A DNA stretch of 64,000 nucleotides from Eledone cirrhosa (lineage: Eukaryota), in the NCBI GenBank assembly GCA_964016885.1, contig OZ024752.1, positions 16,864,001-16,928,000 of the forward strand, read 5' to 3'. The notes under the pieces are model-generated. The model saw nothing but the letters and a program-made list of their open reading frames with translations. It was not told where the DNA came from and made no database searches. The translations under genes and the position numbers were made by a program. Below, piece after piece: positions 4,600-51,894 of the stretch. Position 1 is the first letter of the stretch, and the number at the start of each line of letters is the position of its first letter.

Positions 4600-6050
4600 G
4601 TTTAGTTGGGTCTGATACTATGGTGCATATACGTTTGGCTAATTTTAAAAGAATGTTAAGTTTTGTATCTTTTGGGTGATTTGATGTGAAGAGGAGGTAC
4701 TGTTTGGAGTACGTGGGTTTTTATTTCCCCATCTCTTTTTAAAATGAGGATATCCAAGAAGGCTAATTCCTTGGAGTTGTGTTCCATTGTGAACTGTATG
4801 TTATTGTTAATGTTGTTTATCATATTTTTGAAAACAGTGAGTTCAATCATGTCTTCGTGCCATAGTATAAAGCAATCGTCTAGGTATCTCTTCCAATTAT
4901 TTTTGAATGTGTCTCCAAATCATAGAAGGGATTTGGTTGTAGATTTGTTGTTTGTCATGACTAAGTTGGCGTATGAGGGGCTACCTTTGTGTCCATTGCA
5001 GTACCTGATATCTGTCGGTATGTTGAATCATTGAAAGTAAAATAATTATTCTGTAAGATAAATCGGAGTCCATCAAAAATAGTTTTTGTTGATACGTGTT
5101 GGTATTTCAGATTGGTGTGTGTCTAGCCAATACTGGATTGCCGTTATTCCATAGTTTAGGGATATGTTAGTGTAAATGTTTACTACGTCAAAGGAGACAA
5201 GAATATTGTCTTCACTTACTATTTTGGGTAGGTAGTTCAGCATATCAAGGTCATCTCTGCATATGTTTTAGGAATGTTGTAGGATGTCCAGGAAGTTGCT
5301 AAGTCTGTGAGTTTCACACGCAGGGCCTGCAATAATTGGTCTGAGTTTTAAGTCTTCTGGTTGTGTTAATTGTATGTATTTGTTAGCCGAACTGTCACAT
5401 GCATCGTTTATGAGTTTATATTAGTGGATCTTCGGTAAGCCTAGACAGCACTTGTTTTACATTTGAAATGGCTTATGTATTCAAATTCTGTTGTAGTTAA
5501 TTTATTGCGATATTTTTCTAGTAATGGCAGAATCCGCATTGTTTTATTTTAAAGTTTTCTGTTTTTTTAGTAGTATTTGTTGTCGTCTAAGATTTTAAGT
5601 GCCAGGTCCCTATAGTAGTTAGTGTCCATAATGACCACAGTGCTCCCTTTATCGGCTTTTTTGATGATTATTTCAGTGTTATCTCGAAGTGTGAATAATT
5701 CTTTCCATTCGTGTTTAGAGAGGTTCGATTTAGTGTGTTTATTTGTAATTTGTTCATAGGGAAAGTTGATGGTGCGTTCGCAGTAGGTGTCCAGTGTTAT
5801 GTTCCCTCCTTTCTGTGGGCAGAAATCACTTTTGTTTCTGACTATTGATTCGTCTTCAGTGTTCGTGTCATTGCAGAAGTATTCTATTAGTCTGAGTTTT
5901 CGGCAGAATTCCATGATACCATTTTTCATTTCGGGGAAGTTCGATTTTTGTGGTGTGGGTGTAGATTTCAGTCCCTTACTTAATACGTTAATTTGTGTGT
6001 TAGTGATATCTTTGAAAGGTTAATTATCTTAGGTTTCTCATAAATGGGGG
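4600..6050 (-). pseudogene. Penelope-like (Poseidon-type) reverse transcriptase, frameshifted
   Basis: IIIKKADKGSTVVIMD (5567-5929), LRPIIAGP, ILVSFDVVNIYTN, RYLDDCFILW and IQFTMEH..LAFLDI (4656-4850) are canonical PLE RT motifs. Confidence 0.85.
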
Positions 6051-8711: not shown

Positions 8712-11373
8712 ATGTATGTATGTATGTATGTATGTATGTATGTATGTATGTTTGTCTATATGTATGTTTGTCTATATGTTTCTCTTTCTCCTAATTTCAG
8801 TACATTTTTGACCGGCCACCTTCCTGGTGGCAAGGTTGTAAAACAAAAGAAATTGTCATCCCTTGAATCGCAAGAATGTTTTGCAAATTTTGAAGGTGCC
8901 AGCTACCGCAGCCATTTGTAGTCCATGAATTAGTGAGCTGCGCTCTTTGGCCACAAATCCAAGTTCAGTTATACATTGGTCCAATAGGGTTGGTATATAA
9001 CCTGTAGCTCCAATAATGATGGGTACGAAGCTGAAGGTATCTTGAATACTGGATCTGCAAAATCCTCATCAAAGGCCCATAGATGTCCTCCTTCTCTTGT
9101 ATTTTTCTTAGAACGTTTACATCAAGTGGCCAGCTAATCTCTATAATAGAGCACGTTTTCAATATGTCGTCTCAAACAACAATATCAGGCCGGTTGTGCT
9201 TTAATTTGGGGGCAGTTTTTATTTTCAGGTTTCACCAGTATTCTTTAGTGCCATCTTTCTCAACATATTCCTCCTCATTTGTTTTTAATTTTGTTTTCCT
9301 AAGTGCGTTCCAGATGGTTCTAGCTATCACATCGTGTCTCATAGGGAGGCAGTAGCGAGACAACATTCTTTCGCAGTTGACAAGAATGTGGCTAACATCT
9401 TCGATCTTTGTTTTACAAAGCCGACATTTATTGTCGACTGATGGCCCTCCTCTTTTGTGCAGCAGATATTTGGTATGGATTTCCTGTTCCTGTATTGCAT
9501 ATAGATATCCTTCAAGGTAGGATGTCATAAACTTGTCAGAATTCCATGCCAGGCTTTTTGAATGATTTATCCCCTCTATGTTCTGCGTTTTTTGTCTCAG
9601 ATACCCATGCACAACTTTCTCTGTAAGGTGGTCCATTTTTATTATCTTGTTCGAACATTGAATAGGATCTTACAATTTCCCTGGGAGAGAGATTTATATC
9701 AGGCCTTATTCCATATCTCTCCTCCAGATCAGTGGCTATCCTAATGATATTATTTCCGTCATGCTCATAAACCTGGGCAAGATGGTTGTTGACCTTTTTC
9801 TTCTGCTGAAGATGTTGCTTCAGTGTTACTATCCGGGTCTCGTATGATGTTAATATTGATTTTAGACCCCGGCCACCTTCCTTGCGTGAGAAGTATAGCC
9901 TATCCACATCACCAAAGATGTTAAAGTTTCCAGTAACGCTGAGAAGCTTGTGAGTTGTTATATCCATCTCACTTAGTTCTTGCAATGTTCAGCAGACCAA
10001 ATGTTGGCGTTAGGATAGGCACAGCATATCTGTAGTTATCACCTGACTGTAAAGTCTGTATTGTCAAGCCGTTCATCTCTAGATTTCCAGAGGAGGGCAC
10101 AACCCTTCCATGTTTGACTGTCAAATATGCACATTTGGACTCACCAAATTTCATTCTGATGTCTGCAGAAATTGTGTAATGAGGTCAATTGTTTTTTGAT
10201 ATAGTTGGTATTTGGCCCATACAACTTCAGGTCACCAACAAAGAAAAGATGGGAGCTACTTCTGGACGCACTTCCATGACCACTTTGTTTTGTGAGCAGG
10301 TATGACAGTGGGTTTAGTGAGAGGACGAAGAGCAGCACTGATAAGCTATCACCCTGAAAGATACCTTTCTGATAGTGTATTGGATTAGTCTTAATTTGCT
10401 CCTTCTCACCCCTAAGGATCAAATTGGTGTACCAGTTCTTGGTCAGGCGTTCAACAGCAGCTACTAGTGGTTGTGGGACTTTGGCTAACTGTAAAGCCTT
10501 AATAATCCACCCATGAGGTACACTATCAAAAGCCTTCTGATAGTCCTGCCATACCAGTCATGTTCCTGCGATTCTTTGCTGTTTTTTCCTGTATCATTTT
10601 ATTTGTTAGTAGGTAATCTATGCAGTCCCACACCTTCTTACCACCAGCTTGCTCAGGTGTTATAATGTTGTTGGTAGCAGAGTGATCCTGTAAGAACAGA
10701 TTAAGGCACCCAGTGTATACTTTATACATGATGTTCTGGCAGGCTATTGGGCGGTAATGTTAAGCAAGGGTGGTCTGGCTATTTTGGAGGATGAGGAGAG
10801 TAGTGGCAGTTGATAACCATTGGGGCAGTTCTTGTGTGTCTTTGATGGTTTCTCTAAACAACGGTATGAGATCTTGCCGATAGAAGGTGAAATTATTCAG
10901 CCAGTATCCTGTTATGTAGTCTGGACCTGGTGATTTCCTATTTGACATTTTCTGCAGAGTTGTTTCCAGTATTGATCCATCTATGTCATTGTTTTATCTG
11001 GACATGTTGGCAGTATTCCTGTTCCAGTTCTTTTAGCCATTTAGTTTGTTTGTTAAATCCGTCATTTGTTTCCCATACAGATATCCAGTAGCTCTCAACC
11101 TGTTCTTTTGTAGGGGTGTCATTTACAGAGATTGAGCTTTTCCCATTGAAGCTGCGATAAACTGATTTAGGATCTCTGGCAAATAATCTATTTAGCACTT
11201 GCCGTTTATGTGCTATTGACTTATATTTTAGCCTTTCTGCTGCAGTTGTGAGTTGTTGTTTCAACTGGCGTAGTTTGGAGTTTAGAGTTTTAAATCTTAT
11301 ATCTCCAAATCGCCTCTCTAGTGTTTTTCATACGTCTTCTGGATGTCGTGTGAAGTTGCTTTCAAAAGATGAA

Positions 11374-14009: not shown

Positions 14010-14100
<91 letters not shown>
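14010..14100. repeat. (TA)n microsatellite
   Basis: Direct reading; similar tracts at 1724-1766, 18104-18223, 30107-30160, 48117-48165 and 51896-51952. Confidence 0.98.
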
Positions 14101-14101
<1 letters not shown>

Positions 14102-14192
14102 CGAATGAAATGTGGTACGGAACCAGATGGACCATAAAGCACCGAAGTACTCAATACTTAGGGAAGTAGAGTGGGTAATAGGGACGAGTAGG

Positions 14193-14288
14193 ACCCTGAC
14201 GGCTGAGCTCAAGCCGTTTCGACGGCTAATTCTGGACTAAGTGAACATTTTTATCCTGGTAAATAAATAGCCGAGCTTCTCAGGGGGT
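14193..14288 (-). ncRNA. Hammerhead ribozyme, family 2 (degenerate copy)
   Basis: Minus strand reads ACCCC CTGAGAA G..CGGCTA..TAGCCG TC GAAA CGGC TTGAGCTCA GCCG TC AGGGT. It has a C3.A8 mismatch and a stem I mismatch. Confidence 0.65.
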
Positions 14289-15871
14289 AATATTCCATAT
14301 ATGGTAAAAGTGATTGTCGCAAGGATTGGTCAAAAGTTTGTTGTTGAGACACATAATTCTATCATGGCAATTTGTGGAAGGAAGAGGTAGCTGAACTTGC
14401 CAGTAGAAGAAAGAGGGAGAGGGAGTGGAGGAAACCCAGTCGTGCGTTGAAAGTGACGACTACAGCAGAATCCTAAGGATAAGAGGTCAAGATGGGGAGG
14501 GGGAGGAAGTCGAAACAATAAGTAGATCTATATGGAGTAAATCTATATAGAAAATAAGAATGTTAAAAATATAAAAAAACACAATTTCTGGTTACTATTC
14601 CCTATATAAGCTTTGTTGGAGGTGTCCGTCCTCACGTTGCACTGGTAGATCATATTACGATCTCTGCATCTGTTGTCGAGGGGGAAAATGGATCCAACAG
14701 GACAGTTACACCTCCTGGTCGGCTCTCCACTGCTATCTAGGTTATTTCTTCCATAGGGGTTGAGTTTTTTTGTTGTTAGAGGAGACGATGTTTTGTGCAA
14801 AGTTAGGTGTGGTGCTGTAGGAGATTTTGATGGTATTTTTGTTGATTATGTTGCGGTAGCGGTGTTATAATGGGAAGTGTTTTTCGAGGAGCCTAAAAAA
14901 GATTTTTCCGATAGGTGTTGCCACCTCAGCATTATGGGGAGGATTGAACCACGTTACGTTGCGTGAGTCGCGGTGTCGCCTGCTGGTTCCGCTAAGGGAA
15001 GTTGGATAAAAGGATATTTCCTCCCGGAAGCCACTCCGCTTGAGGGCCTGGTTGTAATGAGGGGCATGTTCGTCGAATATCTGCTCATTAGCGGACAAAC
15101 GAGTTATGCGGAGGGTGATGTTTTAAACCAGGTTATTGGTGATGTTTCTGGGATGGTTAGAGCGGCGGTGGATGTAGTGCAGGTTGTCGTTTGATTTCCG
15201 GTATGGATAGTACAGATCATTTTCGAGGTTAAGGGTAACGTCCAGCAAATTGACTCGGGTTAGGGACGTTTGTAGGGAGATTTTAAATCCCCAGTCCCGG
15301 AAGAAGTTGATTAGTTGTTTACAGACCCGGTCTGTACTACTGCGGTTGTACCCTTTGAGGGTGAGGAGCCCATCATCCTGGTACAATCCACCGCCGAATG
15401 CAGGAAACATTTCGGTGAGTTTAAATAGTAGGAATAATCCTATAAGATCTGTGACCTCGGCCGAATCCGTCGCGCCCATACTGACGTCGAAGGGGGAGTC
15501 GGGAGCTCTCTTTATCCACTTGGAGTTGTCGAAAAGTAGGACTGTCTTCCTGGCGTGGAGAATGATATTTCTTTCCTGGTCAGTGATTGGTGTGAGTGTT
15601 TCTTTCAATTATGTTTCTATCATCTTTTATTGTCTGCTACTCTCATTCGAATTACCTATTCTATAACCTCCCTCCTCCATTTCATACACTATCCTTAGAA
15701 TCTGTTGTATACATATCACTTTCAACGCTTGACCGACCCCACTCACTCCCCATTGTTCTACAGGCAAGTTCAGCCACCCCTACCTCCCACCAAATGCCGT
15801 GATAGACTTATTTGTTTACAACAAATTTTAACCAATCCTCTTGACAACTACATCTTCCCAAATAAGGAAGT

Positions 15872-15968
15872 ACCCCCTTGACAAGTTCGGCTATTTATTC
15901 ACCAGGCTAAACATTCTAATTTAGTCCAGAAATAGCCGTCGAAACGGCTTGAGCTCTGCCGTCGGGGT
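15872..15968 (+). ncRNA. Hammerhead ribozyme, family 2 (U3-A8 core)
   Basis: CCCC TTGACAA (15878-84) G..CGGCTATT..AATAGCCG TC GAAA (15941-44) CGGC TTGAGCTCT GCCG TC GGGG; cleavage triplet GUC at 15961-63. Confidence 0.8.
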
Positions 15969-16584
15969 CATACTTTTTCCTATTTCCCACTCTACTACCC
16001 TAAGTATTGAGTACTCTGGTGCGTTATGGTCCATCTGGTTCCTTACCACGATTCCTTTGTTTTATATATTATATATAGATATAGATATAGATAATAGATG
16101 TCAAGATGAATGGACCTGTTATTTTTATCTAAAGACATTTGTTCCAATTCCACCCCGTCCGTCCCTTCAATCTATTTAATTTCAAGCGTTACCCTAATAT
16201 ATTAGTACTTGTCAAGAAATGACAGAAAATAATCGGTAAACAAAAGCCCATAAGTCTTTAGACTAAAAGATTAACAATTAAAACCTAGAAACCATGTATG
16301 GACCAAATAAATTGCTGACTAAACAACGTGAATAAGATCTAAAGGATTGATAACAGTTTGTTTTATTGTGTTTTTGTTGATTTTAGAATAAGTACAAAAC
16401 ATAAATTGATCCATATGGATTGTGAAACTATATACATGAAATAATGTTATGATGTGGAAAGATCAATATGTAAAAATAGACGTAGGAAGGGGGAAATATA
16501 TTTAATAAGGGAAATGATGAACAAATAACATGAAAAAAGCAGCTGTTTCAATGAGATCAATGGAGTATGTAACACTAGACCACT

Positions 16585-16675: not shown

Positions 16676-17199
16676 GTGTTTATTATCTATATAGAAAATT
16701 ATTTATTTCCCAAGATTTACTTGCTGAATGGAACAGCAACATCACAACTTACAATTAAGGACAAAATGAAAACACACACACACACATAGAACAAACGACC
16801 AACCAGTAACATCTAAATAAACAAATAAATAAACAAATATAAACACACACAGACACCCGGATGTAACACATGCGCAAACTAAGCACACAACACACACACA
16901 AAAACAAGATGGCGTAGGACAGAACAAAGGAGAGGCACAAAGAAAAGAATCCCCAGTCACTGAAGAGGTCACAGAATGTGTGACGAAAGAACTTTGACAA
17001 TATATGAACAATCGTCTGGTTGTGGAACCAACCAACCAACCGGAAATTTATAAATTCCTAAATGTATAAATTTAATTTATAATAAATTGAAGTGAAAGCA
17101 ACTGGTGCGTGTGTTTCTTATTGGCAGAGCTATCAGACGAGAGGGACTAGATATCCAGCTAGCCCACTCAGGACCTTCTCTACGCGGATAGCTAACCAA

Positions 17200-18100
17200 G
17201 AGACACTGCAGGCTAGCCAACTGCCCCATCGACGAGACCTATGCCACCAGGCTTACGTCGTATACAGATTAGAGTGCGACAAATACAGCAATTTATACAT
17301 AGGTAGCACCACCAGACCACTTCACATTAGAATAAAAGAACACCTCAACACTAATGCTTCCTCTTTTAAGAAACACCTAGTGAAATTCAAAAACACCGAC
17401 AAAAACATAATAGTTAGGATAGAAGCTAAGGAAAGAAACCTCGGCAATCTTACAATTAAAGAAGCACTAATTATAGACAAAACGCAACCACCAATCAATA
17501 ACAGACTAGAACTCAACACCCAATTTTTAACATGATAGAGGACCTAGCCCCACACTTACATCTCCACGTATCCTCACACACACACACGCACGCTTACACA
17601 TTCACCTATTCTCTCACACACACATACACATACACAGAGACCAGTTTTAACATGATAGAGCATCTAGCTCCCACATTTACATATAAACATATCCTCTCAC
17701 ACTCACACACACATACACACGCACACGCACACACACACACACGCATGCTTACACCTTTACGTATTCTCCCACACACACTTAGACATACTTGTCCAAACCC
17801 TTTTAAAGGGAGACAACCCTTTATCCACCTAACCATCACTCTTTGACATTAGAAATAGAATGGCATTTTTATACTATTTCCTGTCAGCATGACCTGGCAA
17901 GCTAATTAGAACATTGGAGTAACCCCTTTACTACCCTCTGAAGAAGAGATATTATCTCGAAACTTAAGGATATTCAAATAAATTTAAGGTAAAAGATATC
18001 TTTTGCATTTGTATTTATATTCTATATCCATACCTGCATTGTTCTGGCCTTCTAACTCCAAACGTTTATACCTCACTACGCAATGCTTCAAGTAAACTAC
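17200..18100 (+). mobile_element. Penelope-like 3' fragment: GIY-YIG domain plus 3' region
   Basis: VVYRLECDKYSNLYIGSTTRPLHIRIKEH..KEALII..PPIN. Degenerate hammerhead CTGAAGA A GAGATA T TATCTC GAAAC at 17938-17963. Ends at (TA)n. Confidence 0.8.
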
Positions 18101-20057: not shown

Positions 20058-23000
20058 TTACAGATATATGCTCAGAGTAGGCCCATTCACTCGGGCCATT
20101 CTTGCTTCTCTCACCCATCTTTCAACAAAATGCTGGGAAGAGAGCACTTCCCTCTCTACTCTGATTTTCCTTTTCAAATGAAATTTGAAAAAGTCAATCA
20201 GAGCATCACCGAAGAGGTAAGTGCTCGTCTTCAGCCCTTTCAAACGTGTCCACCATACTATCTCTTTCGCCATGGCCACCAGGCAGATAAAAACTGCCTG
20301 CCCTTCCCGGCTAAAGGAGGAGGGCGGGGCAATCCTCACGATGGACTCAGATGATAGCCGGATCCGTCCTAAACGCGACAGCAGGTGTTCGACATAAACC
20401 CACAAGTCAGCAATTTTCGGACACTGGACTAGTGCGTGCAGGACGGTTTCGTCGCCCTGCGCGCATCTCGGACATGCCCGGCTGACGGCACCTCCATGCC
20501 TGTAGAGTTTATCCCGAACTGGCAAGGCTCCTCGGTAGCACTGCCAGGCCAGAGATTTCTGGAAGTTGTCCATAGGCCCTGGCCCGAAAGTTCTTCCGAA
20601 GAGATTGGCTAGTTGATTTTCGTCGACGCCTAGAGTTTCCCCAAGTACGTCGTCGCTCTTATCCTCCACTAATCCTCTATAGAACGCCGAGGTGGAGTTT
20701 CCACCGATCACATTGCCCGATTGGTCGAGGGCTGTGAGCGCCTGAAGACATTCCAGTCTCCAGGCGCTCCCTCTCGGTCTTCGCTTGACCCAGGACTGCA
20801 GCTCCGTCAAGGCAACGAGCTGGGGAAACACGCGTCTAGCAAACGGCGACCACACCTGATCACCGTCGAGGAAGAGGTGGAGATGTCGTAGCCTGAGCGC
20901 GTGCCTGCGCATCATCAGCCACGGCATGCCCAGCCCTCCACGTAGCGGGTGTTGACAACAGATGGACCGCCTGACCATCGGAGCGCGTCCCTTCCACAAA
21001 AAGCGAAAGAGCAAACGCTCCAGCACAGTCAGGCGAGGCTTAGGACAAGGTACGACGGTCAGGCGGTAGCAGATGACGGACGCGATGTACGCGTTAGCCA
21101 CCTCCGCTCGACCTTTCAGGGATAGCTTCCTCTCGGCCCATTTCTGGGTGAGAGAAGCCACCCTGCTCGTCACCTCGTCCCAGTTTTTGTCCGTCTGGAG
21201 GTCCGGACCGAACCAGACCCCTAGCAATTTAACCGTCCGTCCGTCCAGCGTCCGACGACGCTGTTGGACGGCATGGACCTGCCTCTCCAGGTGCCGAGCT
21301 GCAGGCCCACTGACTTTTCCTGGTTGATCATTGCTCCTGTCACCGCTTCGTATTCTCTTAGTGTAGTGCCGATCGCCTCGATGTGTTTGGCGTTCGACAC
21401 CACTACGGTGACATCGTCCGCATATGCTGATACGGATCTTCCGCATCCTAGTTCGCGCGGGACCCCCCTCAACGTTTCCAGTTTGTGCAGTAATTGCTCG
21501 AGAGTCAATACGTACAAGAGGGACGAGAGGGGACATCCTTGGCGGACCGAGCGCATGATGTTGAACGGTTCCGACAGGTGACCGTTCACTCTCACCACAG
21601 AGCAGATGTCGCTGTGCATGGCAGCGATCCAGCCTCTGAAGACGGGCCCAAAGCCAGCCGCCCTCAGGACTGCCGCTAGGTAACGATGGTCGACCCTATC
21701 GAAAGCTTTCGACTGATCTAAATTGATCAAGGACCCACCCGTGCCAGGTTCCCTAGCTACCTTCTCTACGATGTATCGCATGAGGTGGAGGTTGTCGTGG
21801 ATGGATCTGTCGGGAATGGCGCATGTCTGCGCCTCTCCCACCAAACCACCAACGACAAGCGCCAACCTCTTTGCTAGCACCTTGGCCAAAATCTTAAACT
21901 CTGTGTCTAGCAGAGTTATGGGCCGGAAATTTTCTATGTTATCCCCCTTGTTCGGATCCTTTCTCAGCAGTGCCACCGCTCCTCGGCTCACAGAACTGGG
22001 AATTCTCCCGTTCTGTTGCCAGTTGCAGTAGACGTCCGCCAAGAGGCCTCCGAACAAGTCTGGCATCTGTGCGTAAAGTTCATAGGGCAGACCATCCAAA
22101 CCAGGCGATTTACCCCTTGTGCAGCCAGTCATTGCCTCCCTTACTTCAGCGGCTGTTATCGGCTTTTCGCAACACTTCGCCTCAGTGGCCGAGAGCCGCG
22201 GCAGTCCGTCGAGGTAGACACTAAAGTCCATCCCTCTACCCGGCCCCCCGCTGCCCCCGAACAGCTGAGCGAAGTGTCGCTGAAAAGCTTCACACATTTG
22301 CCCGGGATCGAGTAGCATGCGCCTGTCGTGGTCCACCAAAGACCGGATCGTGGCTTTGTTGCCACGACGCGCCTCCGCCACTCGGGCCCATTGAACGGCT
22401 TTCGTCCCCTCGTGTCTGAGAGCACGCACCCTTGCTCTGACAACGCAGCCTTCGTGCTTTGCATTGAAGAATTGGTCAAGGGCCAATTTCGCCGCAAGCA
22501 CGTCGGTCGCAATGCCTTTGCTAAGCGCCTCGTCTAATTTTCTAACTAGTTCTCCCTCTGCTCTATTTTTCTCTATTGCTAAAGCCTTACTAAACCTAAT
22601 CGATTCTATTCTAATCGTTCTTTTCAGAGCAAACCACCACTTGTTGTTGACGATGGCCCCCGTCAACGCCCGCTTAACTAGTTCGCTAATCCGGTCTCTG
22701 TAGGCCTTGCGCGCTGGTAAGGACGCGTTTAGCTTCCAGTAGCCGGGTCCTCGTCTATGAAGCCTATCTAAGTCAAGCACACAGGTCACGAATTTGTGGT
22801 CCGTGTAGCTGACTATCTTGAATTGTGGACAGCCTATGCTAGACCTATCTATTTCCCTACAAAATACTCTATCTAGATATGATCTGGATGACCCTATGCG
22901 ATTTGTCCAAGTCCACATTGGCACATTCGGGAAATCCAATCGGTACCTGTCAGACAGTTCAAAACGCCTGAGCAGGTTGGTGAGGCTCTTGCACCCTCCA

Positions 23001-23475
23001 CCCCTATCCGCTAATCCCACACAGTCCCAGCGTGCATCTAAGATCCCGTTCCAGTCGCCCACTAACACTAAAGAGCGGGACGTTCCAAGAAAGGTCTCCA
23101 GACGCCGGAAGAAATCAGGCCGCCCTGCTCCTGTCGGGCATAGACGGCCACTAGCCTGAAAGCTTTCCCGTCTCCGCTGGTCACGTCCAGCACCACCAGC
23201 TTACCCTCTGGGTCCAGGAAGATGGCCCGTATGGCGAGATCCAAACCTCTCCGAAAAAGAACAGCAACTCCTCCACCCGATCCAGGACGGCTGGGAGATG
23301 CGTACACATCGTAGCCGCCGAAGATCGGTGCGAAGGCCCGTGCTTCGGAGATTCTGGTCTCGCTGATGGCCACTACATCTATGTTTAGTGACCTGAGGTC
23401 GTTGAGCAGGTGACCCTGCTTCCATGACGACCCCAAGCCACGCGCATTTATGCTGCCTATTCTGAGTGAGGTCAT
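20058..23475 (-). pseudogene. Tx1 ORF2 (APE endonuclease-RT-CCHC), two frameshifts
   Basis: SINARGL/ISETR/GDWN/YLDR/TDH (APE); QGCPLS and YADD (RT); CPRC..ETVLHALVQC. Split over ORFs 23068-23475, 21221-23068 and 20058-21536. Confidence 0.93.
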
Positions 23476-23510
23476 GTTTAAAATAGAGTGGAAAAGATGG
23501 GAAAGACCAC

Positions 23511-25618
23511 TTACCGTACTTTTGGTAGAGGAGGGATGGTTTTTACATCCCTTTTCACTTGATCGTCTGGTGAAGGGACCGTTGAATCGTCCCTTCGGCT
23601 GGTCGTCGGCTCTTCTAAGAGAATGTCTGAATATACTCTTCGATTGATGGTTCCTCCTAGGTCCCTGAAATCACCAACTGCGTTGGGGAATTTCGTTTTA
23701 ATGTTTGTGTATTGTTTCTGTGCTATTTTTAGCAGTCTTATGTTAGTTGGCGTTTTGATTGGTGCTGGTATTATGTAGTCCTGTTGTGAAATGTCTGTGT
23801 GTTCAATTATGTAAGTCATTAGTTTCTTGTTGTGTGTGTTTATTGCCGTGCATTTGTTTTTCTGGGGGTGGGGTGTGGTTCTGCTATTTTCTTGTCGTTG
23901 TTGCTGGGTGTGTGTGTTTTGTTGTTGTGTTTGCGATGTTGGTGCTTGTGGTGGTGGTGTTGAAGGTGTTGTTGGCGGTGGGGTTGTCGCCGGTGGTGAT
24001 GGTGGTGCTGGTGTGGGTGGTGATGGTGTTGGTGGTGTTGCTGCTGTGGGTCTCTTTGCAGTAGACTTTACCCTTTTCTCATTTCTTTCCTCCCTTTTCA
24101 AAGGCGACGATGCGCTGCTTCTGCGTTTGTGCCTTCTTGCGACCTTTTGCCATCCCTCTCCCACCTCACACTCCATGTCTGATTCTGTGAGGTCGGGGAG
24201 GGGTACCAGCTCCACTCTTTCACTTGTTGTTGTTGGTGATGTTTGCACTGGAGTCTCTGTTGCAGCTGCATTTGGTATTGCTGTTGTTGTTGTTAATATT
24301 TCCACTGCTGCTGCTGTTTTTGATTTCCGTGGAGTGGGTATGGGTGCCACGGACCTATCGTTCCTGGTTGCCGCTTGTCCTGTTGCTGGTAGCTGTGGAG
24401 CCGGATTCGGAAGGAGGGGGGTTTTCTCCTTTCTCAGGGTCTTCTCGTTGCAGAAGGCCCTGAGGTGAGTCTTCGATCCACAGCGAAAGCATTTCGGGCG
24501 TTTGCCCTCAACACTTATGGGCAGTTGAGTGCCGTTATCGAAGTCTATCACATCCGGGATAGCTTCGATGCACTCCTGGTTGGTTTGGATTAGCATCTCA
24601 ATGGAGGAGCCGACCCAATCTTCTCTTACTTTTTCTGTACTTGCAGTACAGTTGTTTTGTCCTCGATTCCGACGAGTACAGACGCGGCCAGCCAAGAAGG
24701 GGTCATTCCGGGGTGGGGGGGTGGGGGGACGTGGGTCAGTTTGACCCTCACAATTTTTTTCCCGCAGTAGGAGGGCACCAACACCATTTCCTCGCTCCTT
24801 AGGGTCACTACTGATTGGGCCTTTGCCTCCTGGGGTGTGGCAAAAAGTACGTCTACGGTGGCATATTTTTTGCCTCGGGTGATGTGCGTTTTCCGCTGCC
24901 ACACAGACCCCAAGGCTTTTTGTATTTGGGCCTCTGTGGCTCTTTCCACCCTACGGGATTTTGTACTTACTGTACGGTACGTGACCGTACAGTGCTCTTG
25001 GGTTTCGAAAAATTTTTCCGCTGCCTTGCAGATTGCTCGGTGTCCGTTCTTTGTCACCATCTTCTTCGCTTCCTCTAATTCCTCATTTATTATGAGGATT
25101 GTTTCCAAGTTTTTCGCAATACCTGCAAATGAGATTGGTTTTTCTCTGCTGTTGTTGTTGTCGTCAGAGCTGCTGGTACTTTTGTTGTTGCTGCAGGTAC
25201 TACGACTACTGCCTCCGCCGCTGTTGCTGTGGTTGTTGTTGGTGTTGCTGCTGCTAATGCTGTTGTTGTTTATGCTGCTGGTGATGCTGTTGCGGCTGCT
25301 ACTGTTGTTTTCATTGTCACTGTTGCTGTTGTTATTACGGCTGCTACTGCTATTATTCCTGACGTCAGACGAATGAACTGGGTTTTCGTATTTCCCGCAC
25401 ACCTGTTTCGTCGCTGTCGTCGTCGTCGTGGAGAAACCTTGCACGCTTTGCACGAGACTTTTCTTTTCTTTCGTCACTTGCGAAAGAGAAGGGAGGGAGA
25501 GAGACACATTTAAAGAAGGGAGGGAGAGAGACAATCTTCTCTCTGCTGTAGTGATGATTGAGGAAGAAGAAGACGGAATGAGTGGGAGTGACGTATGAAA
25601 TTTCTTTTTCGTAGCCAT
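23511..25618 (-). pseudogene. Tx1 ORF1 (gag-like zinc knuckle), frameshifted
   Basis: CFRCGSKTHLRAFC (CX2CX4HX4C); ISVEGKRP is shared with the other two ORF1s. The frame change lies in the 24626-24902 overlap, which contains G-runs. Confidence 0.88.
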
Positions 25619-25832
25619 GTTGTTTTTTGTTTAAAATGAATATTGGGTACAAAACCCCAATAACTGGTTATTTAACCCCGAAGGGCCAAATAACGGACAG
25701 AAAGACCCCTCTCACGAGGAGGAGGGTGTCTTTATCAACAATTTGGTTCAAGTTTTAAACAATTTACAATTGTTTTAACGGTTAAAAATTACTATACCTT
25801 ACAGAGCCGAACCTCCGTCAACCATGGCATTC

Positions 25833-27989: not shown

Positions 27990-30103
27990 ATAACAAATTA
28001 TCGTTAAAGGCAATCCAGTTAGAGGTTGTGAGTACTCTGTATTGTCGATAGTTTTAACGTACGGCGTTGTTTGACTCAATAAGAGGTTTCCTTAGTTAGG
28101 TGGCGAGTTCACGGGAATTCCTATGCAGGTTAATCTTGGAGTAATAATAGTGAAAGAATGAAGAATAACATGTTCAACAGTACAAAAAGGGTTTTATTTA
28201 CAGTATTAACAATTGTTTCATTGATTAGGATGTCTAGAGGTTGCTAATCACTCGAAGTTGTGTCGCTCAACCTTAAATACAGTGTATGCCTAATCAAATC
28301 ATCGGAATAACTGACAAAATTACACTTGGTGTTTATATTTATACTACGGAAAATTGAAATAACAACATCAATAATAAAGAAAGAAAAAGAAAAAGAAAAA
28401 GAAAAAGAAAAAGAAAAAGAAAAAGAAAAAATAATAATAATAAAGAAGTTAGAATGAAGATGATAACAAATAAGTAAAATAATATATATGTGAAAAAAAT
28501 ATAGGAACATAATATGATTGTTGAAAATAGTGGTGGTCGTGGTGGTGGTTAAAGTTGTAGTGGTGTGTAAGTATAAAGATGTGATGAGGGTAGGAATATT
28601 ATTAATAGGAAAATAAATATTAAATATATACATATGTATTGGTTAAATCACAGATGGTTAGAGTAGGAAGAAAGACTATAATGATACATGACATATAAAA
28701 GATAAATTAATAAATTAGAAGTTAGGTTAGAGGTTAAGAGATACAAGGGAAGAGGTGAAATAGGGTTAGGGAGAGAGAGTGAAAGAAAGGTTAGGAGATT
28801 AATGATGTTGATTTAGCTATTAGTTGGTTTGTTGACAGTTAATAATAGTGAGTTGGTATGTAGTTATTATAATAGACTCTGGGTGGTTTAGCTTGAATTA
28901 TGAGATTGTTGGATCGAATCATGTTGGTTCGAAATTTGTGAATTTAGTAGCTGCTTTGTGCCTACAGACAATTGATCGTTCTATTTTGCTGTTAAGCAGC
29001 ATTTTGTCATACTTTAAAATATGGAACAGCTCCATATTGCAAAGTCCGCAGTGGGACATTCCATTTTTGTAGGCCTTTGCTCCCGATAATTTCGACCAGC
29101 TAATCCTGTATTCTTGGTTTGTATCCTTAAGCTGCCAGATTTTATTGGCCAGCGTTGTTGTGTTCACTAGTCTACGGTTCTTCATAGAATGTTTTTTTTT
29201 AACTCCCCAGCCGTAGAACCTATGTAGTGCCATGCTAAGTTGCCCGAATTAATAGTACACAAGTACACTATATTTGATTCCAGGCATCTATTTTGTAGTG
29301 GGCACTTATCCGGTAAGTGGCAGTTACATTTGGAGGCCTTCCTGTGTGCAGGTTCTCCGTTGTGGTTTTGTATGTTGTTATGTATGAGTTGAGATTTAGG
29401 TTTGTTGATGTTTTGTTGTGATGCGTTCTGACGTGTGTGTGATTGTGATGTATGTGTTTGTTTTGTATTTGGTGTTATGGTGTATTTTCATTAGAGATTC
29501 TTCTATAGTTAATTTTATGTATGTGTGATTCTATGTTGGCTGCAGTAGAGTAAGACAGTTTGATAGTTTTCTGTTAAAGATTCTATGGTATTTGTGAAGT
29601 TTAGGAAAGTGCTTGTCAATTAGTTTAAAGAATGCAGAAGGTAGTTTGGTTTTTGTAGAGGAGTTGAATATTGGATTGAACCATAAGTATTTCCTATCTC
29701 TGGATTTTCTATAGTTCCTAGGGATCACTATATTAGTGTTCGGTTCAGTTATTTCTGGTGCTCGTTGTCTATTTCTATGTTTAGTCCTATATTTGCTATT
29801 TCTATAGGTGTGGGTGGTGTAGCTGTCGTTAGGTGTGTTGTTGTTGTCTCTATCTGGTATGTATTTGAGCCTCTCCTCGTGGCCTGCCTTAATTAAAGGT
29901 ATGTTATAGTAGTTCGCGTGTTCATTAAAAATCTCTAGGTCAGAAGATAAGCGTGAAATTCTGAGGGATACACTATGTGCTATAAAAATAACGAAAATCT
30001 AGCCTAAATTAATTATAACTCAAACCACCCTCACTCCATAATTAATTCCATAGCACATAGTCCTTCAGAATTTCATGCTTATTTTCTGTTATTCTTCATT
30101 CTT

Positions 30104-30276: not shown

Positions 30277-33200
30277 TATCTCTTTCTCTTAATTTCGAGT
30301 ATATTTTTTTTTGACCGGCCACCTTCCTGGTGGCAAGGTTGTAAAAGAAAAGAAATTGTCATCCCTTGAATCGCAAGAATGTTTTGCAAATTTTGAAGGT
30401 GCCAGCTATCGCAACCATTTGTAGACTATGAATTAAGGAGCTGCGCTTTTTGTCCGCAAATCCAAGTTCAGTCATACTTTGGTCCAAGCGGGTTGGTATA
30501 TAACCCGTAGCTCCAATAATGATGGTGTATCTTGGATACTGGATTTATAAACTCCTCATCAATGGTCCGTAGATGTCCTCCTTCTCCTGTATTTTTCTGA
30601 CAACATTTACATCAAGTGGGCAGCTGGTCTCCACAACAGAACACGTTTTTAATGTGTGGTCCCAAACAACAATATCAGGCCGGTTGTGCTTTAATTTGGT
30701 GGCAGTTTTTATTTTCAGGTTCCACCAGTATTCCTTAGTGCCATCTGTTTCAATATATTCTTCCTCGTTTGTTGTTAATTTTGTTTTCCGAAGTGCATTC
30801 CAGATGGTTCTAGCTACCCCATTGTGTCTCATGGGTAGGTAGTAGCGAGATGACATTCTTTCGCAGCTGGCAACAATGTGGCTTACATCCTCGATCTTTG
30901 TTTTACATAGCCTACATTTATTGTTAGCTGCTGGCCCTCCTCTTTTGTGCAGCAGATATTTGGTAGGGAGTTCTTGTTCCTGTATTGCATAGAGATATCC
31001 CTCAAGGTGTGATGTCATAAACTTGTCGGAACTGCATGCCTGGCTTTTTTAGTGGTTTATCCCCTCTATGGTCTGTGTTTTACGTCTCAAGTATCCATGC
31101 ACAACTTTTTCTGTAAACTGGTCAATTTTTTTATCTTGTTTGAACATTAAATAGGATCTTCCGATTTCTCTGGGTGAGAGATTTATATCAGGCTTTATTC
31201 CATATCTCTCCTCCAGATCAGTCGCTATTCTAATGATATATTTTTTTTCATGCTCATAAACCTGGGCAAGATGGTTGCCAACCTTTTTCCTCTGTTGAAG
31301 GTGTTGCTTCAGTCTTACTATCCGGGTCTCATATGTTGTTAATATTGATTTTAGACCCCGGCCACCTTCCTTGCGTGAGAAGTATAGCCTATCCACATCA
31401 CCATTGATGTTAAAGTTCCCAGTAACACTGAGAAGTTTGCGAGTTCTAACATCCATCTCACTTAGTTCTTGCAATGACGAGTTCAGCAGGCCAAATATTG
31501 GCGTTAGAATTGACACATCATAAGTATCGTGGGCAATTTATTTGTTGTACGCTGACAGTTCTGATGACCATATTTTCTTTACTCTTCTGAGGTATTCAGT
31601 TCTGGTTCTCTCCTTATTTATGGGTCCATCATATCTGACATTCTCATCCTGTCCAAGATATCTGTAGTTGTCACCTGACTGTAGAGGTTGTATTGTCAGG
31701 CCGTTCATCTCTAGATTTCTAGAGGAGGGCACAGCTCTTCCACGTTTTACTGCCAAATATGCACACTTGGACTCACCAAATTTCATTTTGATGTCGGTTG
31801 AAAATTGTGTAATGAGATCCAATTGTTTCTTGATGTCATTGATATTTGGCCCATACAACTTCAGGTCATCAACAAAGAAAAGATGGGAGGTACTTCTGGA
31901 CCTACTTCTTTGTCCACCTTGTTTCCTGAGTAGGTAAGATAGTGGATTCAGTGAGAGAACGAAGAGTAGCACTGACAAGCTATCACCCTGAAAGATGCCC
32001 TTCTGGTAATGTATCTTATCAGTCTTAACTTGCTCCTTCTCACCTCTAAGGATCAAATTGGTGTACCAGTTCTTGGTCAGGCGTTCAACAGCAGCTACCA
32101 ATGGTTGTGGGACTTTGGCTAACTGTAAAGCCTTAATAATCCACCCATGAGGTACACTATCAAATGCTTTTTGATAGTCCAGCCACACCACAGTCATGTT
32201 TTTGCGATTCTTTGTTGTTTTTTCCTGAACCATTTTATTAGTTAGTAGGTGATCTATGCAATCCCACACCTCCATCTTTCCACCAGCTTGCTCAGGTGTT
32301 ATGATGTTGTTGGTAGCACAGTGATCCTGTAAGAACAGGTTAAGGCACCCAGTATATAATTTAAACATGATGTTTTGGCAGGCTATTGGGCGTTAATTTT
32401 TAGCAAGGGTGGTTTGGCTATTTTTGGGAACGAGGAGAGTAGTGGCAGTTGATAACCATCTGGGCAGTTCTTGTGTGCCTTTAATCGTTTCTGTAAACAG
32501 CCGTATGAGATCTTGCCGATAGAAAGTGAAATTCTTCAACCAGTATCCTGTAATGAGGTCTGGGCCTGGCGATTTCCTATTCGACATTTTCTGTAGAGCT
32601 GTTTCCAATATTGACCCATCTATGTCATATTGTTTTGTCTGGACATGTTGGCAGTAGTCCTGTTCCAGTTCTTTTAGCCAATTAGTTTGTCTGTTGAATC
32701 CGTCATCCGTTTCCCATACAGATCTCCAGTAGCTCTCAACCTATTCTTTTGAAGGGGTGTCATTTACAGCTTTTGCCACCGAAGCTGCGATAAACTGATT
32801 TAGGATCTCTGGCAAAGAATCTATTTAGCACTTGTCGTTTATGTGCTGTTGACTTATATTTTAGTCTTTCTGTTGTAGCTGTGAGTTGTTGTTTCAACTG
32901 GTGTAATTTGGAGTTCAAAGTTTTAAATTTTGTATCTCCAAATCGTCTCTAACCTTTTTTTAGGTCTTCCTGGTGTCGTGTGAAGTTGCTCTCTATGTTG
33001 CATTTCATAACGACTGCGATGTGTGAGATACTTCGTCTCAGGGACAAAATTTTGGCTTTTAAATTTCGCATCCACGCTGGTTCAGGCTTTCTGTTTGTAT
33101 CTTGATTGCGTGGTTTTAGATGTGTGTTATATGATAACAATGTGACAGCTGAAACATATAACAAAATATAAGTGTTTCAAATGTCGTTTCTACACCTTTA

Positions 33201-34479
33201 GATCGTATGGTATAGCCTTCAGATAATTGCCAGCTATTTCGTTCACCGCTTCCAATTCCAATTTAGTGGGTTCTTTACTGATTCTGGTGTTGTATGGTCT
33301 GTCACTCACATTAAGGCGGTGTATCTCTTGAAACATATCGTTCCATATCACTTGTAAGGTGTCCACAAGTTTTTGGTGTTCTGTTTGTTCAGTAGAGTCA
33401 TGAATTTCAGCCTCGTTGTTGATGTGGTGACAATTACTACTAGAGTTAGCTGACCTTTCTCGCTGTTCTTCAGTGGAAGTGGGATGGATTTCAGCAAAAT
33501 TGTTGGTGAGCTGTTCACTGTTATATTTAGCTAGCCATTCTCTTTGTCTGTCAGTAGAGGTGGGGTGGTTGTCTACAAGGGCTGTATTTGTAGTATCACT
33601 CAATTCCGTTAGATGTATCAATTTACATCTAATGATACGTTTTGCCTGTTCATTTAAATGCTTTGGAGAAAAGTCTAATTCTGGGTGTTTGGAGTGCCAT
33701 AAAGTTTTTAGCCTTTGCATAAAACCGAACTTTTGGGGTTCAGATTGTTTGTATGCTTCATATAATTCTTTGTTAAGCTCGTAGCTCCACTGTATACAAC
33801 GGTTGTAGTTGCGATTTGGTCGAAGGAGACTTGTACTTTTTGCCATGATGAGTTCGTCTATTCACTAATATTTCGTATTTATTTTTCAAAATAGTCGATG
33901 ATCTTCTTTAAAAGTTTCGACAAAGTTCTGTCAGAATCAAATTTAAAGTTATTCACAGCTTGGGTAATATTTCTTTTCAGTTAGTTTTTAATTCTACAAC
34001 TGTGTTTTAAACGTTGTTCTTGAATCGTTTGAATCGAGAACAAAAAGAACCGTTACTTAGTATATTTCTTCATGAATGTAATATAATATAACAACGCTGT
34101 ATTTATATGTTAAAGTTTATGTATCATTCATATAAATAGGTGTTCTACAACTTATTCACAACATATTCACAGTTCAAACACTTATGTTTTTGTTTCTGAA
34201 TCGAAAACGTTTCTTGTATATTTCTTTATAAATGTAATATAACAACGTTGCATTTATATGTTAAAGTGTATGTATCGTTCATATATCATAAGTGTATGTA
34301 TCGTTCATATAAATAGGTGTTTTACAACACACTTACAGTTCAAACACTTATGTAGAATTATTGTATGTAATCTTACCGCGTAATGTAGCTCAACTTTTTC
34401 CAATATATGGTATGTTGCCTTCATGTAAGCCGTAATTACACACGTCCGATTATCGGACACTGGCCACAACGGTCGCCAT
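30277..34479 (-). mobile_element. R4/Dong-like RLE LINE family A, copy 2, apparently full length, multiple lesions
   Basis: N-terminus 33190-33846. RT 31538-32368 (WLDYQKAFDSVPH, GIFQGDSLS, FFVDDLKLY). CCHC+RLE 30545-31018 (KHNRPDIVVWD..E.SCPLD.N..K..Y). (TATG)n at both ends. Confidence 0.9.
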
Positions 34480-34494
34480 TGTATGTATGTATGT

Positions 34495-37030
<2,536 letters not shown>

Positions 37031-37521
37031 CACAAATGTTTGGAATGCTTTACATATTTTTACTGTTCCATTAATGGATTGTACTTGTAATTTTCTAACT
37101 AGTTGTGTTCTTTCTGTACCTGTGAAGCCTAGCTTCTCAAGATTTGTATTGAGGCAGTTACTAACATACCCCAGTGCCACAATAATCGCAGGCATAAATC
37201 TGAAGGTGTAATCAGGGTGGAGTATCTGCAGATTTCTCATCAGTTCTGCATAAATATTCTTTTTTCACTAATCTTTGATATTATATTCGCATCCGCTGGG
37301 CAGCTGACTTGCACTACTGTGCATGTTTTCTTCTCCCTGTCCCATATCATAATATCTGGTCTGTTATGCCTGCATTTTATTGGGGTTTTTACTGGAACAT
37401 TCCACTAGTACTCTTTCATATTATGTACATATGCTGTAGCTTTTAATGTGTTTATTATCGGGGCTATCTTTTCTACGGATTGCATTGTACAGTGTTTTGG
37501 CCACTACATCATGCTTCATAG
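37031..37521 (-). mobile_element. Duplicate RLE-end fragment of family B fused to the next copy
   Basis: Direct repeat of about 35108-35613; abuts (TATG)n at 37523. Confidence 0.85.
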
Positions 37522-39594: not shown

Positions 39595-39972
39595 ATCCTT
39601 TGGATCTTATTCAAGTTGTTTAGTCAGCAATTTCTTTGGTCGATACATGGTTTCTAGGTTTTAATTGTTAATCTTTTAGTCTAAAGACTTATGGGCTTTT
39701 GTTTACCGATTATTTTCTGTCATTTCTTGACAAGTACTAATATATTAGGGTAACGCTTGAAATTAAATAGATTGAAGGGACGGGCGGGTGGAATTGGAAC
39801 AAATGTCTTTAGATAAAAATAACAGGTCCATTCATCTTGACATCTATTATCTATATCTATATCTATATATAATATATAAAACAAAGGAATCGCGGTAAGG
39901 AACCAGATGGACCATAACGCACCAGAGTACTCAATACTTAGGGTAGTAGAGTGGGAAATAGGAAAAAGTATG

Positions 39973-40069
39973 ACCCCGACGGCAGAGCTCAAGCCGTTTC
40001 GACGGCTATTTCTGGACTAAATTAGAATGTTTAGCCTGGTGAATAAATAGCCGAACTTGTCAAGGGGGT
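39973..40069 (-). ncRNA. Hammerhead ribozyme, family 2
   Basis: Reverse complement of 15872-15968. Confidence 0.8.
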
Positions 40070-42357
40070 ACTTCCTTATTTGGGAAGATGTAGTTGTCAA
40101 GAGGATTGGTTAAAATTTGTTGTAAACAAATAAGTCTATCACAGCATTTGGTGGGAGGTAGGGGTGGCTGAACTTGCCTGTAGAACAATGGGGGAGTGAG
40201 TGGAGTCGGTCAAGCGTTGAAAGTGATATGTATACAACAGATTCTAAGGATAGTGTATGAAATGGAGGAGGGAGGTTATAGAATAGGTAATTCGAATGAG
40301 AGTAGCAGACAATAAAAGATGATAGAAACATAATTGAAAGAAACACTCACACCAATCACTGACCAGGAAAGAAATATCATTCTCCACGCCAGGAAGGCAG
40401 TCCTACTTTTCGACAACTCCAAGTGGATAAAGAGAGCTCCCGACTCCCCCTTCGACGTCAGTATGGGCGCGACGGATTCGGCCGAGGTCACAGATCTTAT
40501 AGGATTATTCCTACTATTTAAACTCACCAAAATGTTTCCTGCATTCGGCGGTGGATTGTACCAGGATGATGGGCTCCTCACCCTCAAAGGGTACAACCGC
40601 AGTAGTACAGACCGGGTCTGTAAACAACTAATCAACTTCTTCCGGGACTGGGGATTTAAAATCACCCTACAAACGTCCCTAACCCGAGTCAATTTGCTGG
40701 ACGTTACCCTTAACCTCGAAAATGATCTGTACTATCCATACCGGAAATCAAACGACAACCTGCACTACATCCACCGCCGCTCTAACCATCCTAGAAACAT
40801 CACCAATAACCTGGTTAAAAACATCTCTCTCCACATATCTCGTTTGTCCGCTAATGAGCAGATATTCGATGAACATGCGCCTCATTACAACCAGGCCCTC
40901 AAGCGGAGTGGCTTCCGGGAGGAAATATCCTTTTATCCAACTTCCCTTAGCGGAACCAGCAGGCGACACCGCCACTCACGCAACGTAACGTGATTCAATC
41001 CTCCCCATAATGCCGAGGTGGCAACACCCATCGGGAAAATCTTTTTTAGGCTCCTCGAAAAACACTTCCCATTATAACACCGCTACCACAACATAATCAA
41101 CAAAAATACCATCAAACTCTCCTACAGCACTACACCTAACTTTGCACAAAACATCGTCTCCTCTAACAACAAAAAAACTCAACCCCTATGGAAGAAACAA
41201 CCTAGACATCAGGGAGAGCCGACAGGAGGTGTAACTGCCCTGATAGATTTACGTGCCCCCTCAACAACAAATGCCGAGAACGCAACGTGATCTACCAGTG
41301 CAACGTGAGGACGGACACCCCCAACAAAGCTTATATAGGATTAACCGCGTGTGACTTCAAGACCCGGCTCTACCAACACCGACATACTTTCCGAAATCCG
41401 GTCAGGCGACATGCCACTACACTTTCGGGCCACATCTGGGACCTCCAAGTTAATAATATAACCTACAATCTCACTTGGAACTTACTGTCCAGAGCTAACT
41501 CTTACACGGGAGGACGTCGCCCGTGTAAATTATGCTCGGAGGAAACATTACAAATGCTGTTTTCGAAGGACCAACTCCTAAACAAGAAAGACGAACTGGT
41601 AACCGCATGCAAACACAGATTGTGTAGGACTTACCTCGCCCTCAAATCCCATAACGACCCGGGTGGGTAGACAAGGGCTGATACCCCCCACTTGCCGAAT
41701 AAGTTAGGGGAAACCCCAGCTTACATAGGTAGATGTATCTTTTTTCTTTTCCTCTTTGTCTTCTTCTTCCCCCTGTCTCATCCTATCACTTCCTTCGACC
41801 CCCTATTTTCTTCCTCGTCTGCTTTTCCCCTTTCGCCTACCCCGATGCAGCCCATCGGGCCTCTGTAGCATCAGTTCCCCCACCCCTGTAATTTTAAGAT
41901 AGAATTGGCCGAATACGTTTTACTAACTACTTATAGCAGACGTGTTAAACCCCTTAATTCTGTATCAGTTCTGGTACTACAAGTTTTTTCTACAAGTTTT
42001 TTCTATTCTTAACTTATTAACCTGTAATTGTCAGATAGCATTGTGATTTTTTTTATTCATTTCTCACTATCTAATTTTATATATTTTTTTATTTCTTTCT
42101 ATTATCTTTTATTGTTTCCTACTCTCATTCGATTTACCTATTCTATAACCTCCCTCTTCCATTTCATACACTATCCTTAGAATCTGCTGTATACGTATCT
42201 CTTTCAACGCTTGGCCGACTCCACTCCCTCCCCTATTGTTCTACAAGCAAGTTCAGCCACCCCTACCTCCCACCAAATTCCATGATAGACTTATTTGTGT
42301 TTACAACAAATTTTAACCAATCCTCTTGACAACTACAATCTTCCCATATAAGGAAGT

Positions 42358-42453
42358 ACCCCCTTGACAAGTTCGGCTATTTATTCACCAGGCTAAAAAT
42401 TCTAATTTAGTCCAGAATAGCCGTCGAAACGGCTTGAGCTCTGCCGTCGGGGT
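42358..42453 (+). ncRNA. Hammerhead ribozyme, family 2
   Basis: TTGACAA at 42364-70, GAAA at 42426-29, GTC at 42446-48, stem I CCCC/GGGG. Confidence 0.8.
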
Positions 42454-42463
42454 CATACTTTTT

Positions 42464-42996
42464 CCTATAATATATAAAAGAGAGATGTTTCTTGGTTGGT
42501 TGGTTTCATCACATAAGAATTACACACATACACATACATAGAGACTGCTTCCAGAATATATTTTCTTATCCCGTTTGTAAAATAAGTTGGATTACTTTGA
42601 ATAAATAATGAATGAATATTACATAATTTATCTACTAAATTTCGTTATTCTTGATTAAATATAAATAATTTTGTTGGTTATTTTAAGATTCACTTCTTTA
42701 AAATTTTCCACTGTCAACACTTCCGGTTAGCGATCGCTTAAATAAACATTCATATATTTCTGACACTAATTTTCTCCTAATGCAGTTTATATATATTGTC
42801 TTTTTTAATGTATCATGGATTACGTTACTGATTACATAAGACAGTGTAACGCAGTCTTCGTTCAATTTCTGTGTATATTGTCAATTACGATTTTATTTGA
42901 TGTATCATATCTACATGTATATATACTTGCGTATAATATCAATATACACACTACACATGCTAGCAGAAAACCATTAGAAGGGTGGTTTTTCTGCTA
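42464..42996 (+). mobile_element. Non-autonomous Helitron-like repeat
   Basis: Starts near CTATAATATATAAAAGAGAG and ends in a hairpin + CTAG (42993-96); inverted copy at 2227-3202. The 5' boundary is approximate. Confidence 0.55.
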
Positions 42997-50560: not shown

Positions 50561-50648
50561 ACAAAGTGTACACAAATATATATATATATTTATAAGAACA
50601 GATTAAAGTATATATATATATATATATATATATATAGGAACCAGTAAG

Positions 50649-50743
50649 ACCCCGACAGCTGAGCTCAAGCCGTTTCGACGGCTAATTCTGGACTAAATGA
50701 AAATTTATCCTGGTATTTAAATAGCCGATCTTCTCAAGGGGTA
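50649..50743 (-). ncRNA. Hammerhead ribozyme, family 2
   Basis: Reverse complement of 51709-51803. Confidence 0.78.
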
Positions 50744-51105
50744 ATTCCATATATGGTCAAAGTGATTGTCAAAAATCAGTAGTAATTCTGTGGTTGCAAA
50801 TTAGTAGGGGAGATGGTGGCTAAACCTGCCAGTAGGAGAAAGAGGGGAGGGGGTGGAGTAGACCCAATCAAGCGTTGGTAGTGCCAGCTACAGCTGGGCA
50901 TGAGGTCAAAGAAGATACAGGGGAGGGGGAGGGGGAGGAAGTCGGAACGGTAGGTAGAACAATGGGGGGGGTAGAAATAGGAAAGAAAAAATACTGAGAG
51001 TGAAGAAAAGCAAATAAGTGTAAAGAAAAAAGTAAAGTAAATTAAATTCTACGACCTAGGTCTCTAGCTATTGTTAGGCGAGAATAAAATAAAGAAAGAA
51101 AGAAG

Positions 51106-51136
<31 letters not shown>

Positions 51137-51803: not shown

Positions 51804-51894
51804 CTTACTGGTTCCTATGACCCACTCTACTACCTCAAGTATTGAGTACTTTGGTGCGTTATGGTCCACCTGGTTCCTTACCACATTTCCTTCG

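Follow-up and report, generated by a model that had tools for sequence, protein, structure and literature searches.

Hammerhead ribozymes with a U3-A8 pair have been described in the pLTRs of Penelope-like elements (PLEs) by Cervera & de la Pena (2014, PMC4209133). The Cercyon PLEs of Schistosoma mansoni carry type I motifs with a short helix I, a G10.1-C11.1 pair and a palindromic loop III, arranged in opposite-strand pairs, and U3-A8 occurs in more than 1,000 copies (approximately 1,300 matches). In the part of that paper considered here, activity in vitro was low, in vivo evidence was stated to be absent, and cleavage and circles were only proposed. The same swap was found as a natural covariant active in vitro by Perreault et al. 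(2011, PMC3088659), without a link to PLEs and, in the sections used, without a description of any C3•A8 variant. In the portion considered of a study of one type III hammerhead, activity was restored by changing C-G to G-C alone and was low with U-A and C•A (PMC9901934).

The C-terminal EN+ PLEs of the Hydra clade, as covered in part of Craig et al. (2021, PMC8557442), are generally shorter than 3 kb, encode RWK-like and DKT motifs, a CxCX5C linker and CxxC and CxH in the EN, and show (TA)n targets, a tail and inverted arms. The hammerheads in the examined part of their File S2 all have C3-G8 and stems II of 3-7 bp, and the role of the hammerhead in endonuclease-bearing Penelope elements was stated to be unclear. 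In Poseidon_Ac of Anolis, two internal RT starts downstream of the hammerhead define the tail, and the targets are AT-rich. Its hammerhead has a C3-G8 core, is inactivated by single 3/8 mutations and needs protein for cleavage; in the part of the report considered, hammerhead mutants had no effect on insertion in vitro, and neither in vivo ends nor RNA reads ending at the site were found (PMC11167929).

The window analyzed here, 64,000 nt of Eledone cirrhosa (GCA_964016885.1, OZ024752.1, 16,864,001-16,928,000), contains six type I hammerhead motifs (Table 1). The family shares the listed traits with the Cercyon PLEs but has a helix III of 5-6 bp, a stem II domain of 56 nt and a C3•A8 lineage; unlike Poseidon_Ac, it has left genomic ends at the site. 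The preliminary description rightly called the motif larger than the minimal PLE hammerhead, but overstated the novelty of U3-A8. That core is already published and ordinary by itself, and the finding as first written amounts to a new family of a known variant. The C3•A8 lineage and the scars at the scissile bond are new; neither was reported in the literature searched, in so far as it was covered, although absence from print is not thereby established. The follow-up thus offers indirect evidence of cutting in vivo together with a mismatched-core lineage that, judged from sequence comparisons, appears to have replicated. We consider it probable that the U3-A8 hammerhead in the pLTR of this Hydra-type PLE cuts the element RNA in vivo after C17, a Watson-Crick 3-8 pair being preferred but not required.

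Table 1. Hammerhead copies and the PLE sequences that carry them (positions in the window)
Feature	Position	Strand	Remark
Subfamily A type I hammerhead (U3-A8, N7=C)	15872-15968	+	whole motif
15872 copy, stem I	15874-15877/15964-15967	+	part of subfamily A hammerhead
15872 copy, core TTGACAA	15878-15884	+	U3-A8
15872 copy, stem II domain, 56 nt	15885-15940	+	part of subfamily A hammerhead
15872 copy, GAAA	15941-15944	+	stem III follows, to 15962
15872 copy, predicted cut	after C17 at 15963	+	GUC triplet
Inverted 5'-truncated pLTR arm with the 15872 hammerhead	15614-15983	+	15983 is the short-arm end in many copies
PLE tail, extending the long arm as far as the second inferred RT start	15984-16061	+	TA-rich target next
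Local duplicate of 39595-41339 in inverted orientation, with ORF fragment, inverted pLTR, tail and unique flank	14601-16347	-	97% identical
3' pLTR and tail, C3•A8 subfamily	14095-14604	-	hammerhead 14193-14288, core 14277-14283
Inverted arm, subfamily A insertion	39958-40328	-	core TTGACAA 40057-40063
5'-truncated, interrupted RT/GIY-YIG ORF, Hydra-type PLE	40340-41667	+	covers residues ~275-717 (intact protein, 717 aa)
Sense 3' pLTR, subfamily A	42096-42468	+	core TTGACAA 42364-42370, C17 at 42448, ends into (TA)n
Minus arm, non-coding two-armed insertion, young subfamily B	50634-51397	-	core TTGAGAA 50731-50737
Plus arm with tail, subfamily B	51397-51901	+	core TTGAGAA 51715-51721, C17 at 51798

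The anatomy was read directly from the assembly. The six copies trace to three insertions and one local duplication, and the 15872 copy is part of the local inverted duplicate and not an independent insertion. The two duplicates are identical at 1,698 of 1,744 aligned bases, non-element flank included, and this flank was absent elsewhere among the retrieved genomic loci. All six copies lay where the preliminary description had placed them, its five TTGACAA and TTGAGAA cores, stem III and GUC triplet were recovered, and the predicted 3' product starts (15964, 42449 and 51799) agree with the C17 positions. Instead of two subfamilies there are three. The 3-8 pair is U3-A8, a Watson-Crick pair, in five copies and C3•A8 in the sixth (14193-14288, minus), where, as in its whole lineage, the Watson-Crick pair is missing. 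That copy had been called degenerate; its core is instead common to approximately 1,800 genomic matches, and its one private break is a G1.1-to-A change at 14197. An origin of the 14193 copy by a private T deletion was rejected. Nor is N7 the only difference between the subfamilies, as had been claimed, since position 10.2 and stem III differ too. Four contig runs showed only family-wide variation when aligned to the window. In the same alignments, contig depth 3' of 15923 (window 15923-16050) was approximately 30-fold above that over the 5' core, and opposite-strand joints were concentrated at 15923-15931.

A protein search of the 3.0-Gb source genome returned many intact PLE copies. At locus L095 a head-to-tail array has a period of 3,531 bp, with units alike at 3,530 of 3,531 bases, and the 717-aa ORF begins 190 nt past C17. 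The intact protein has the motifs RWR (RWK-like) and DKT, the CxCX5C linker and CxxC/CxH in the C-terminal EN; the homologues found were 39-54% identical, and the PLE domain was not matched in a Pfam search. The (TA)n target preference, the tail and the inverted arms agree with the Hydra clade, whereas the 3.5-kb unit exceeds its general length. On these protein motifs and on the target and arm traits given in the part of PMC8557442 considered, we assign the element to the Hydra-type PLEs. Tailed copies with an intact site number 21,645 against approximately 7,000 core matches, hence most insertions end prematurely inside stem II or III.

The core census counted exact patterns genome-wide, with both arms of an insertion counted separately. 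The U3-A8 core context had 4,739 exact matches and the reversed pattern none, so the motif is far above chance. In this first context C3•A8 was found 396 times, U3•G8 16 times and C3-G8 four times; G8 was thus present in 20 of the 5,155 matches, unlike the canonical C3-G8 of the Hydra clade. The second context was dominated by C3•A8 (1,415/1,856), which altogether made up 1,811 of the 7,011 core matches. An older sister family gave 352 matches, most of them U3-A8, with G8 in 25 (six C3-G8 and 19 U3•G8). Twelve core positions were invariant across all subfamily majorities; U4, G5, A6, A9, G10.1-C11.1, G12, A13, A14, A15.1-U16.1 and NUH were fixed in 12/12 of them. Within this one family, all four 3/8 combinations occur naturally on a scaffold that is almost invariant. 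It had been argued that positions 3 and 8 changed together so as to remain pairable. The argument is weakened because C3•A8 makes up a quarter of the family and its lineage was the replicating trunk for a long period. An old G8 subfamily (L239, L265-L284) contains both C3 and U3, which suggests a possible route from C-G through U•G to U-A.

Over 18 representative copies, helix I was paired in 91% of cells, outer stem II in 93% and helix III in 90%, with the three helices set round the core and helix I open-ended. The inner helix of stem II reported earlier is present in subfamily A but is not general (73% paired), and the AAGTA/TACTT extension of stem I is likewise found in subfamily A and not in the others. 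Outer stem II carries three two-sided compensatory changes relative to the older sister family. Fold z-scores were -2.3 for subfamily A and -0.3 for B; we put the structural weight on the compensatory pairs, since related sequences may beat the shuffle control without structure. The predicted probability of the hammerhead secondary structure was 0.02 in A and 0.47 in B, and in the predicted fold of A the core forms wrong pairs with the GAAA side. The minimal hammerhead is matched in its helix I of 4-5 bp, in G10.1-C11.1 and in the palindromic loop III, but its absent or very short helix III and its helix II of 7-8 bp do not recur here. An Rfam search returned no hammerhead match, at the gathering threshold or at E up to 10, which bears out the earlier expectation that U3-A8 hammerheads in PLE pLTRs would be missed by pattern searches. 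At least three unrelated repeat families (L181, L188, L193, L195; L177, L196, L204; L184, L192, L199) have canonical CUGANGA cores with stem II domains of 50-70 nt, so that a long stem II is not special to the U3-A8/C3•A8 PLE family.

The history of the 3-8 pair was followed in an ORF-only maximum-likelihood tree of 46 of the 77 projected copies (at least 650 aligned bases), with an outgroup of three U3•G8 copies from the older family. The tree is a ladder leading from U3-A8 grades (including subfamily A) through a C3•A8 grade to U3-A8 again and then to the young subfamily B, with support of 100 both for the C3•A8 grade and for renewed U3-A8. A pLTR tree of 162 of 284 copies, with positions 3, 7 and 8 masked, gave the same order. 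By its sequence, the 14193 copy belongs to what appears to be a replicating C3•A8 lineage nested between two U3-A8 grades. The ORF majorities of early and late C3•A8 copies differ by 35 synonymous and 10 non-synonymous changes (pS 0.116, pN/pS 0.08; p = 3e-6 against within-group changes), and from this purifying selection it follows that C3•A8 elements supplied their own protein. In this interval none of 40 core/stem positions changed versus 11 of 83 others (p = 0.016), the stem limits being set by inspection; from A to B subfamilies the corresponding figures were 1/40 and 25 changes at 83 others. The return to U3 was a single transition and could be due to chance. The C3•A8 core is predicted to be dead by in vitro rules.

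A search for copies starting at G1.1 found junctions to A-rich linkers, which led to the scars. We then looked for insertions with both flanks intact at the C17-G1.1 bond and at three control bonds, the main lists being classed by eye. At C17-G1.1, 13 of 95 matches (12 events) were A/T-rich untemplated inserts and the remainder duplications or slips. Such inserts were found in none of 88 matches at the control bond two bases upstream, and no clean insert was present among 88 at the loop III edge, where two filler-plus-duplication cases occurred. When the inserts were required to be bounded by A/T, 12 of 15 matches at C17-G1.1 were true, with one new event (a run of 28 A), and the third control bond gave no match; L447 and L450 were removed as another repeat and L459 as a duplication. 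On the sense strand the inserts are A-biased (117 A, 57 T, 12 G and 7 C). The core in cis was U3-A8 in 10 of the 13 scar events, C3•A8 in two (L438, and L426 with two further core changes) and missing in one, where both arms have an identical insert. L439 has the same insert in both arms. Scarred copies may be long: L497 extends 2.7 kb beyond its scar, and in L498 one arm stops at G1.1 while the other, scarred, reaches 1,247 nt. The scars lie mostly in the B lineage and are scarcest in subfamily A, that of the 15872 copy (0/13 versus ~23/100 of tailed copies; binomial p ~0.03). They give indirect support to hammerhead activity, mostly of the B lineage. Counts of AA-flanked 5' junctions (39, 24, 5, 10 and 18 at the five offsets compared) were dropped as a test because microhomology in the hairpin gives offset 0 an advantage in some subfamilies and the control counts are raised by point mutations.

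In approximately 390 short hairpin insertions, two arms meet near the cut site. Of the first 50, which were classed by eye, 19 contain filler and have G1.1 as the end of each arm (13 late U3-A8, four C-lineage and two A or early-C); of the other 31, eight have no spacer (a one-base ambiguity), 15 run past the site and eight are unclear. The clear hairpins consist of +103 and +20 arms within (TA)n. Ten of the 19 have a one-base spacer, which might represent C17 of one arm after deamination. Support from subfamily A is confined to a few hairpins (L356, L481). A tail site chosen to tell the late C3•A8 subfamily from the first reverted one separates them only partially (1/9 vs 0/5), so that L477 and L478 are assigned to C3•A8 only tentatively. 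L343 and L335 have an arm starting at G1.1 and ORF pieces nearest to C3•A8 copies. G1.1 occurs as an end three times in L341, once joined to an A-run. In L327, L364, L379 and L341 pieces of ORF or UTR are joined to G1.1, mostly via A-rich linkers; these are likely to be tailed decay ends captured by the RT. In L352-L354 a piece running from G1.1 into the tail is tandemly repeated inside one insertion, as if the RT had restarted repeatedly on one 5' end.

RTs of the PLE-like kind can jump between RNA ends, and decay enzymes can add A/U tails. In the scheme that we infer, cutting in head-to-tail arrays would release a 3,531-nt unit starting at G1.1, with both RT start sites near its 5' end. The element RT, whose start points appear to lie 20 and 103 nt downstream of the cut, would copy one of these two stretches and then reach the new 5' end. 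Stopping there would give a mini-hairpin insertion, passing to an A/U-tailed RNA 3' end would give a scar, and an exact crossing to C17, whether by jumping or along a ligated circle, would restore the motif and look like an uncut template. Alternatively, the RT may read through an intact junction in uncut or precisely rejoined RNA. C3•A8 RNA was likely cut too, through residual or protein-assisted activity or in trans. The sequences are compatible both with cutting that is necessary for copying and with cutting that is merely incidental; the cut-derived ends are a small minority beside the tailed copies with an intact site and may mark a side path. That PLE hammerheads cut RNA in vivo within the copying cycle, that the RT, having started just behind the cut, passes from the 5' end to the RNA 3' end and so builds the pLTRs and tandems, and that C3•A8 did the cutting in cis through several subfamilies until the pair was restored, is a proposal we make only tentatively.

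It is possible that the fold was kept as a scaffold for RT binding or initiation, with weak or dispensable catalysis, and that occasional cutting led only to dead-end or aberrant insertions. A scaffold would accommodate a C3•A8 lineage that went on replicating over at least 0.116 synonymous changes per site, the more than 21,000 copies in which the site was read through, and the normal insertion of hammerhead mutants in vitro in the part of PMC11167929 considered. A scaffold does not account for the catalytic positions that stayed fixed even in the C3•A8 phase, for position 3 going back to U ahead of the youngest burst, or for scarred templates that yielded copies of 1.2-2.7 kb. This explanation fits with cutting and departs from cleavage by an active hammerhead solely on whether cutting matters. 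Inactive C3•A8 cores, with their RNA cut in trans by co-expressed U3-A8 copies via the palindromic loop III, seem unlikely. The substrate strands are almost identical among subfamilies, homodimers through loop III are predicted to be favored in all of them (11-17 kcal/mol below two monomers), and subfamily A is about as old as the C3•A8 subfamilies (within-group pS 0.026 versus 0.037 and 0.021), which speaks for such cutting; yet cutting in trans would not hold the C lineage's own core positions fixed, and subfamily A has the fewest scars.

The mismatch of the C lineage would be only apparent if C3 paired with G7 in a shifted register, the core being one base shorter with a spare A before stem II. 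Position 7 is G in 98 of 100 among the C3•A8 matches listed and any of the four bases in U3-A8 copies, and PLE hammerheads often carry one more base between 9 and 10.1 according to the part of PMC4209133 considered. G7 may, however, have been inherited, since over such a distance a single site would be expected not to change, and a natural core lacking N7 was not found in the literature searched, in so far as it was covered; we regard the shift as highly improbable. Hardly more credible is the view that the scars reflect a stalled RT at stem III or the action of a host nuclease or of DNA repair instead of ribozyme chemistry. C17 is indeed unpaired and at the foot of a GC-rich stem, and microhomology biases junctions (11/30 AA-flanked), but a stall cannot produce an A-rich tailed 3' end at C17, the three other bonds lack clean inserts, and the inserts are strand-biased and, in L439, shared by the arms. 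If cleavage after C17 is the correct reading, scissile-bond scars would provide a DNA-only readout of in vivo cutting, countable in any assembly by subfamily and core variant.

Other repeats are present in the window. An apparently intact LINE at 52576-58005 (+) has two long ORFs of 652 and 1,156 aa (endonuclease-RT), and its broken relatives, 70-81% alike, lie at 20058-25630 (-) and 59011-63874 (+); these elements are probably of the L1/Tx1 type. The Rep/helicase-like ORF pieces at 44885-46353 (+) presumably resemble those of Helitrons. Several-copy fragments of two more non-LTR families occupy 9037-10932, 30527-33861 and 35102-37430 (-). Fragments of other Penelope-like families, comprising a DKG-type RT piece, a GIY-YIG piece and a Hydra-like piece, were found at 5567-6019 (-), 17086-17535 (+) and 29531-29998 (-).
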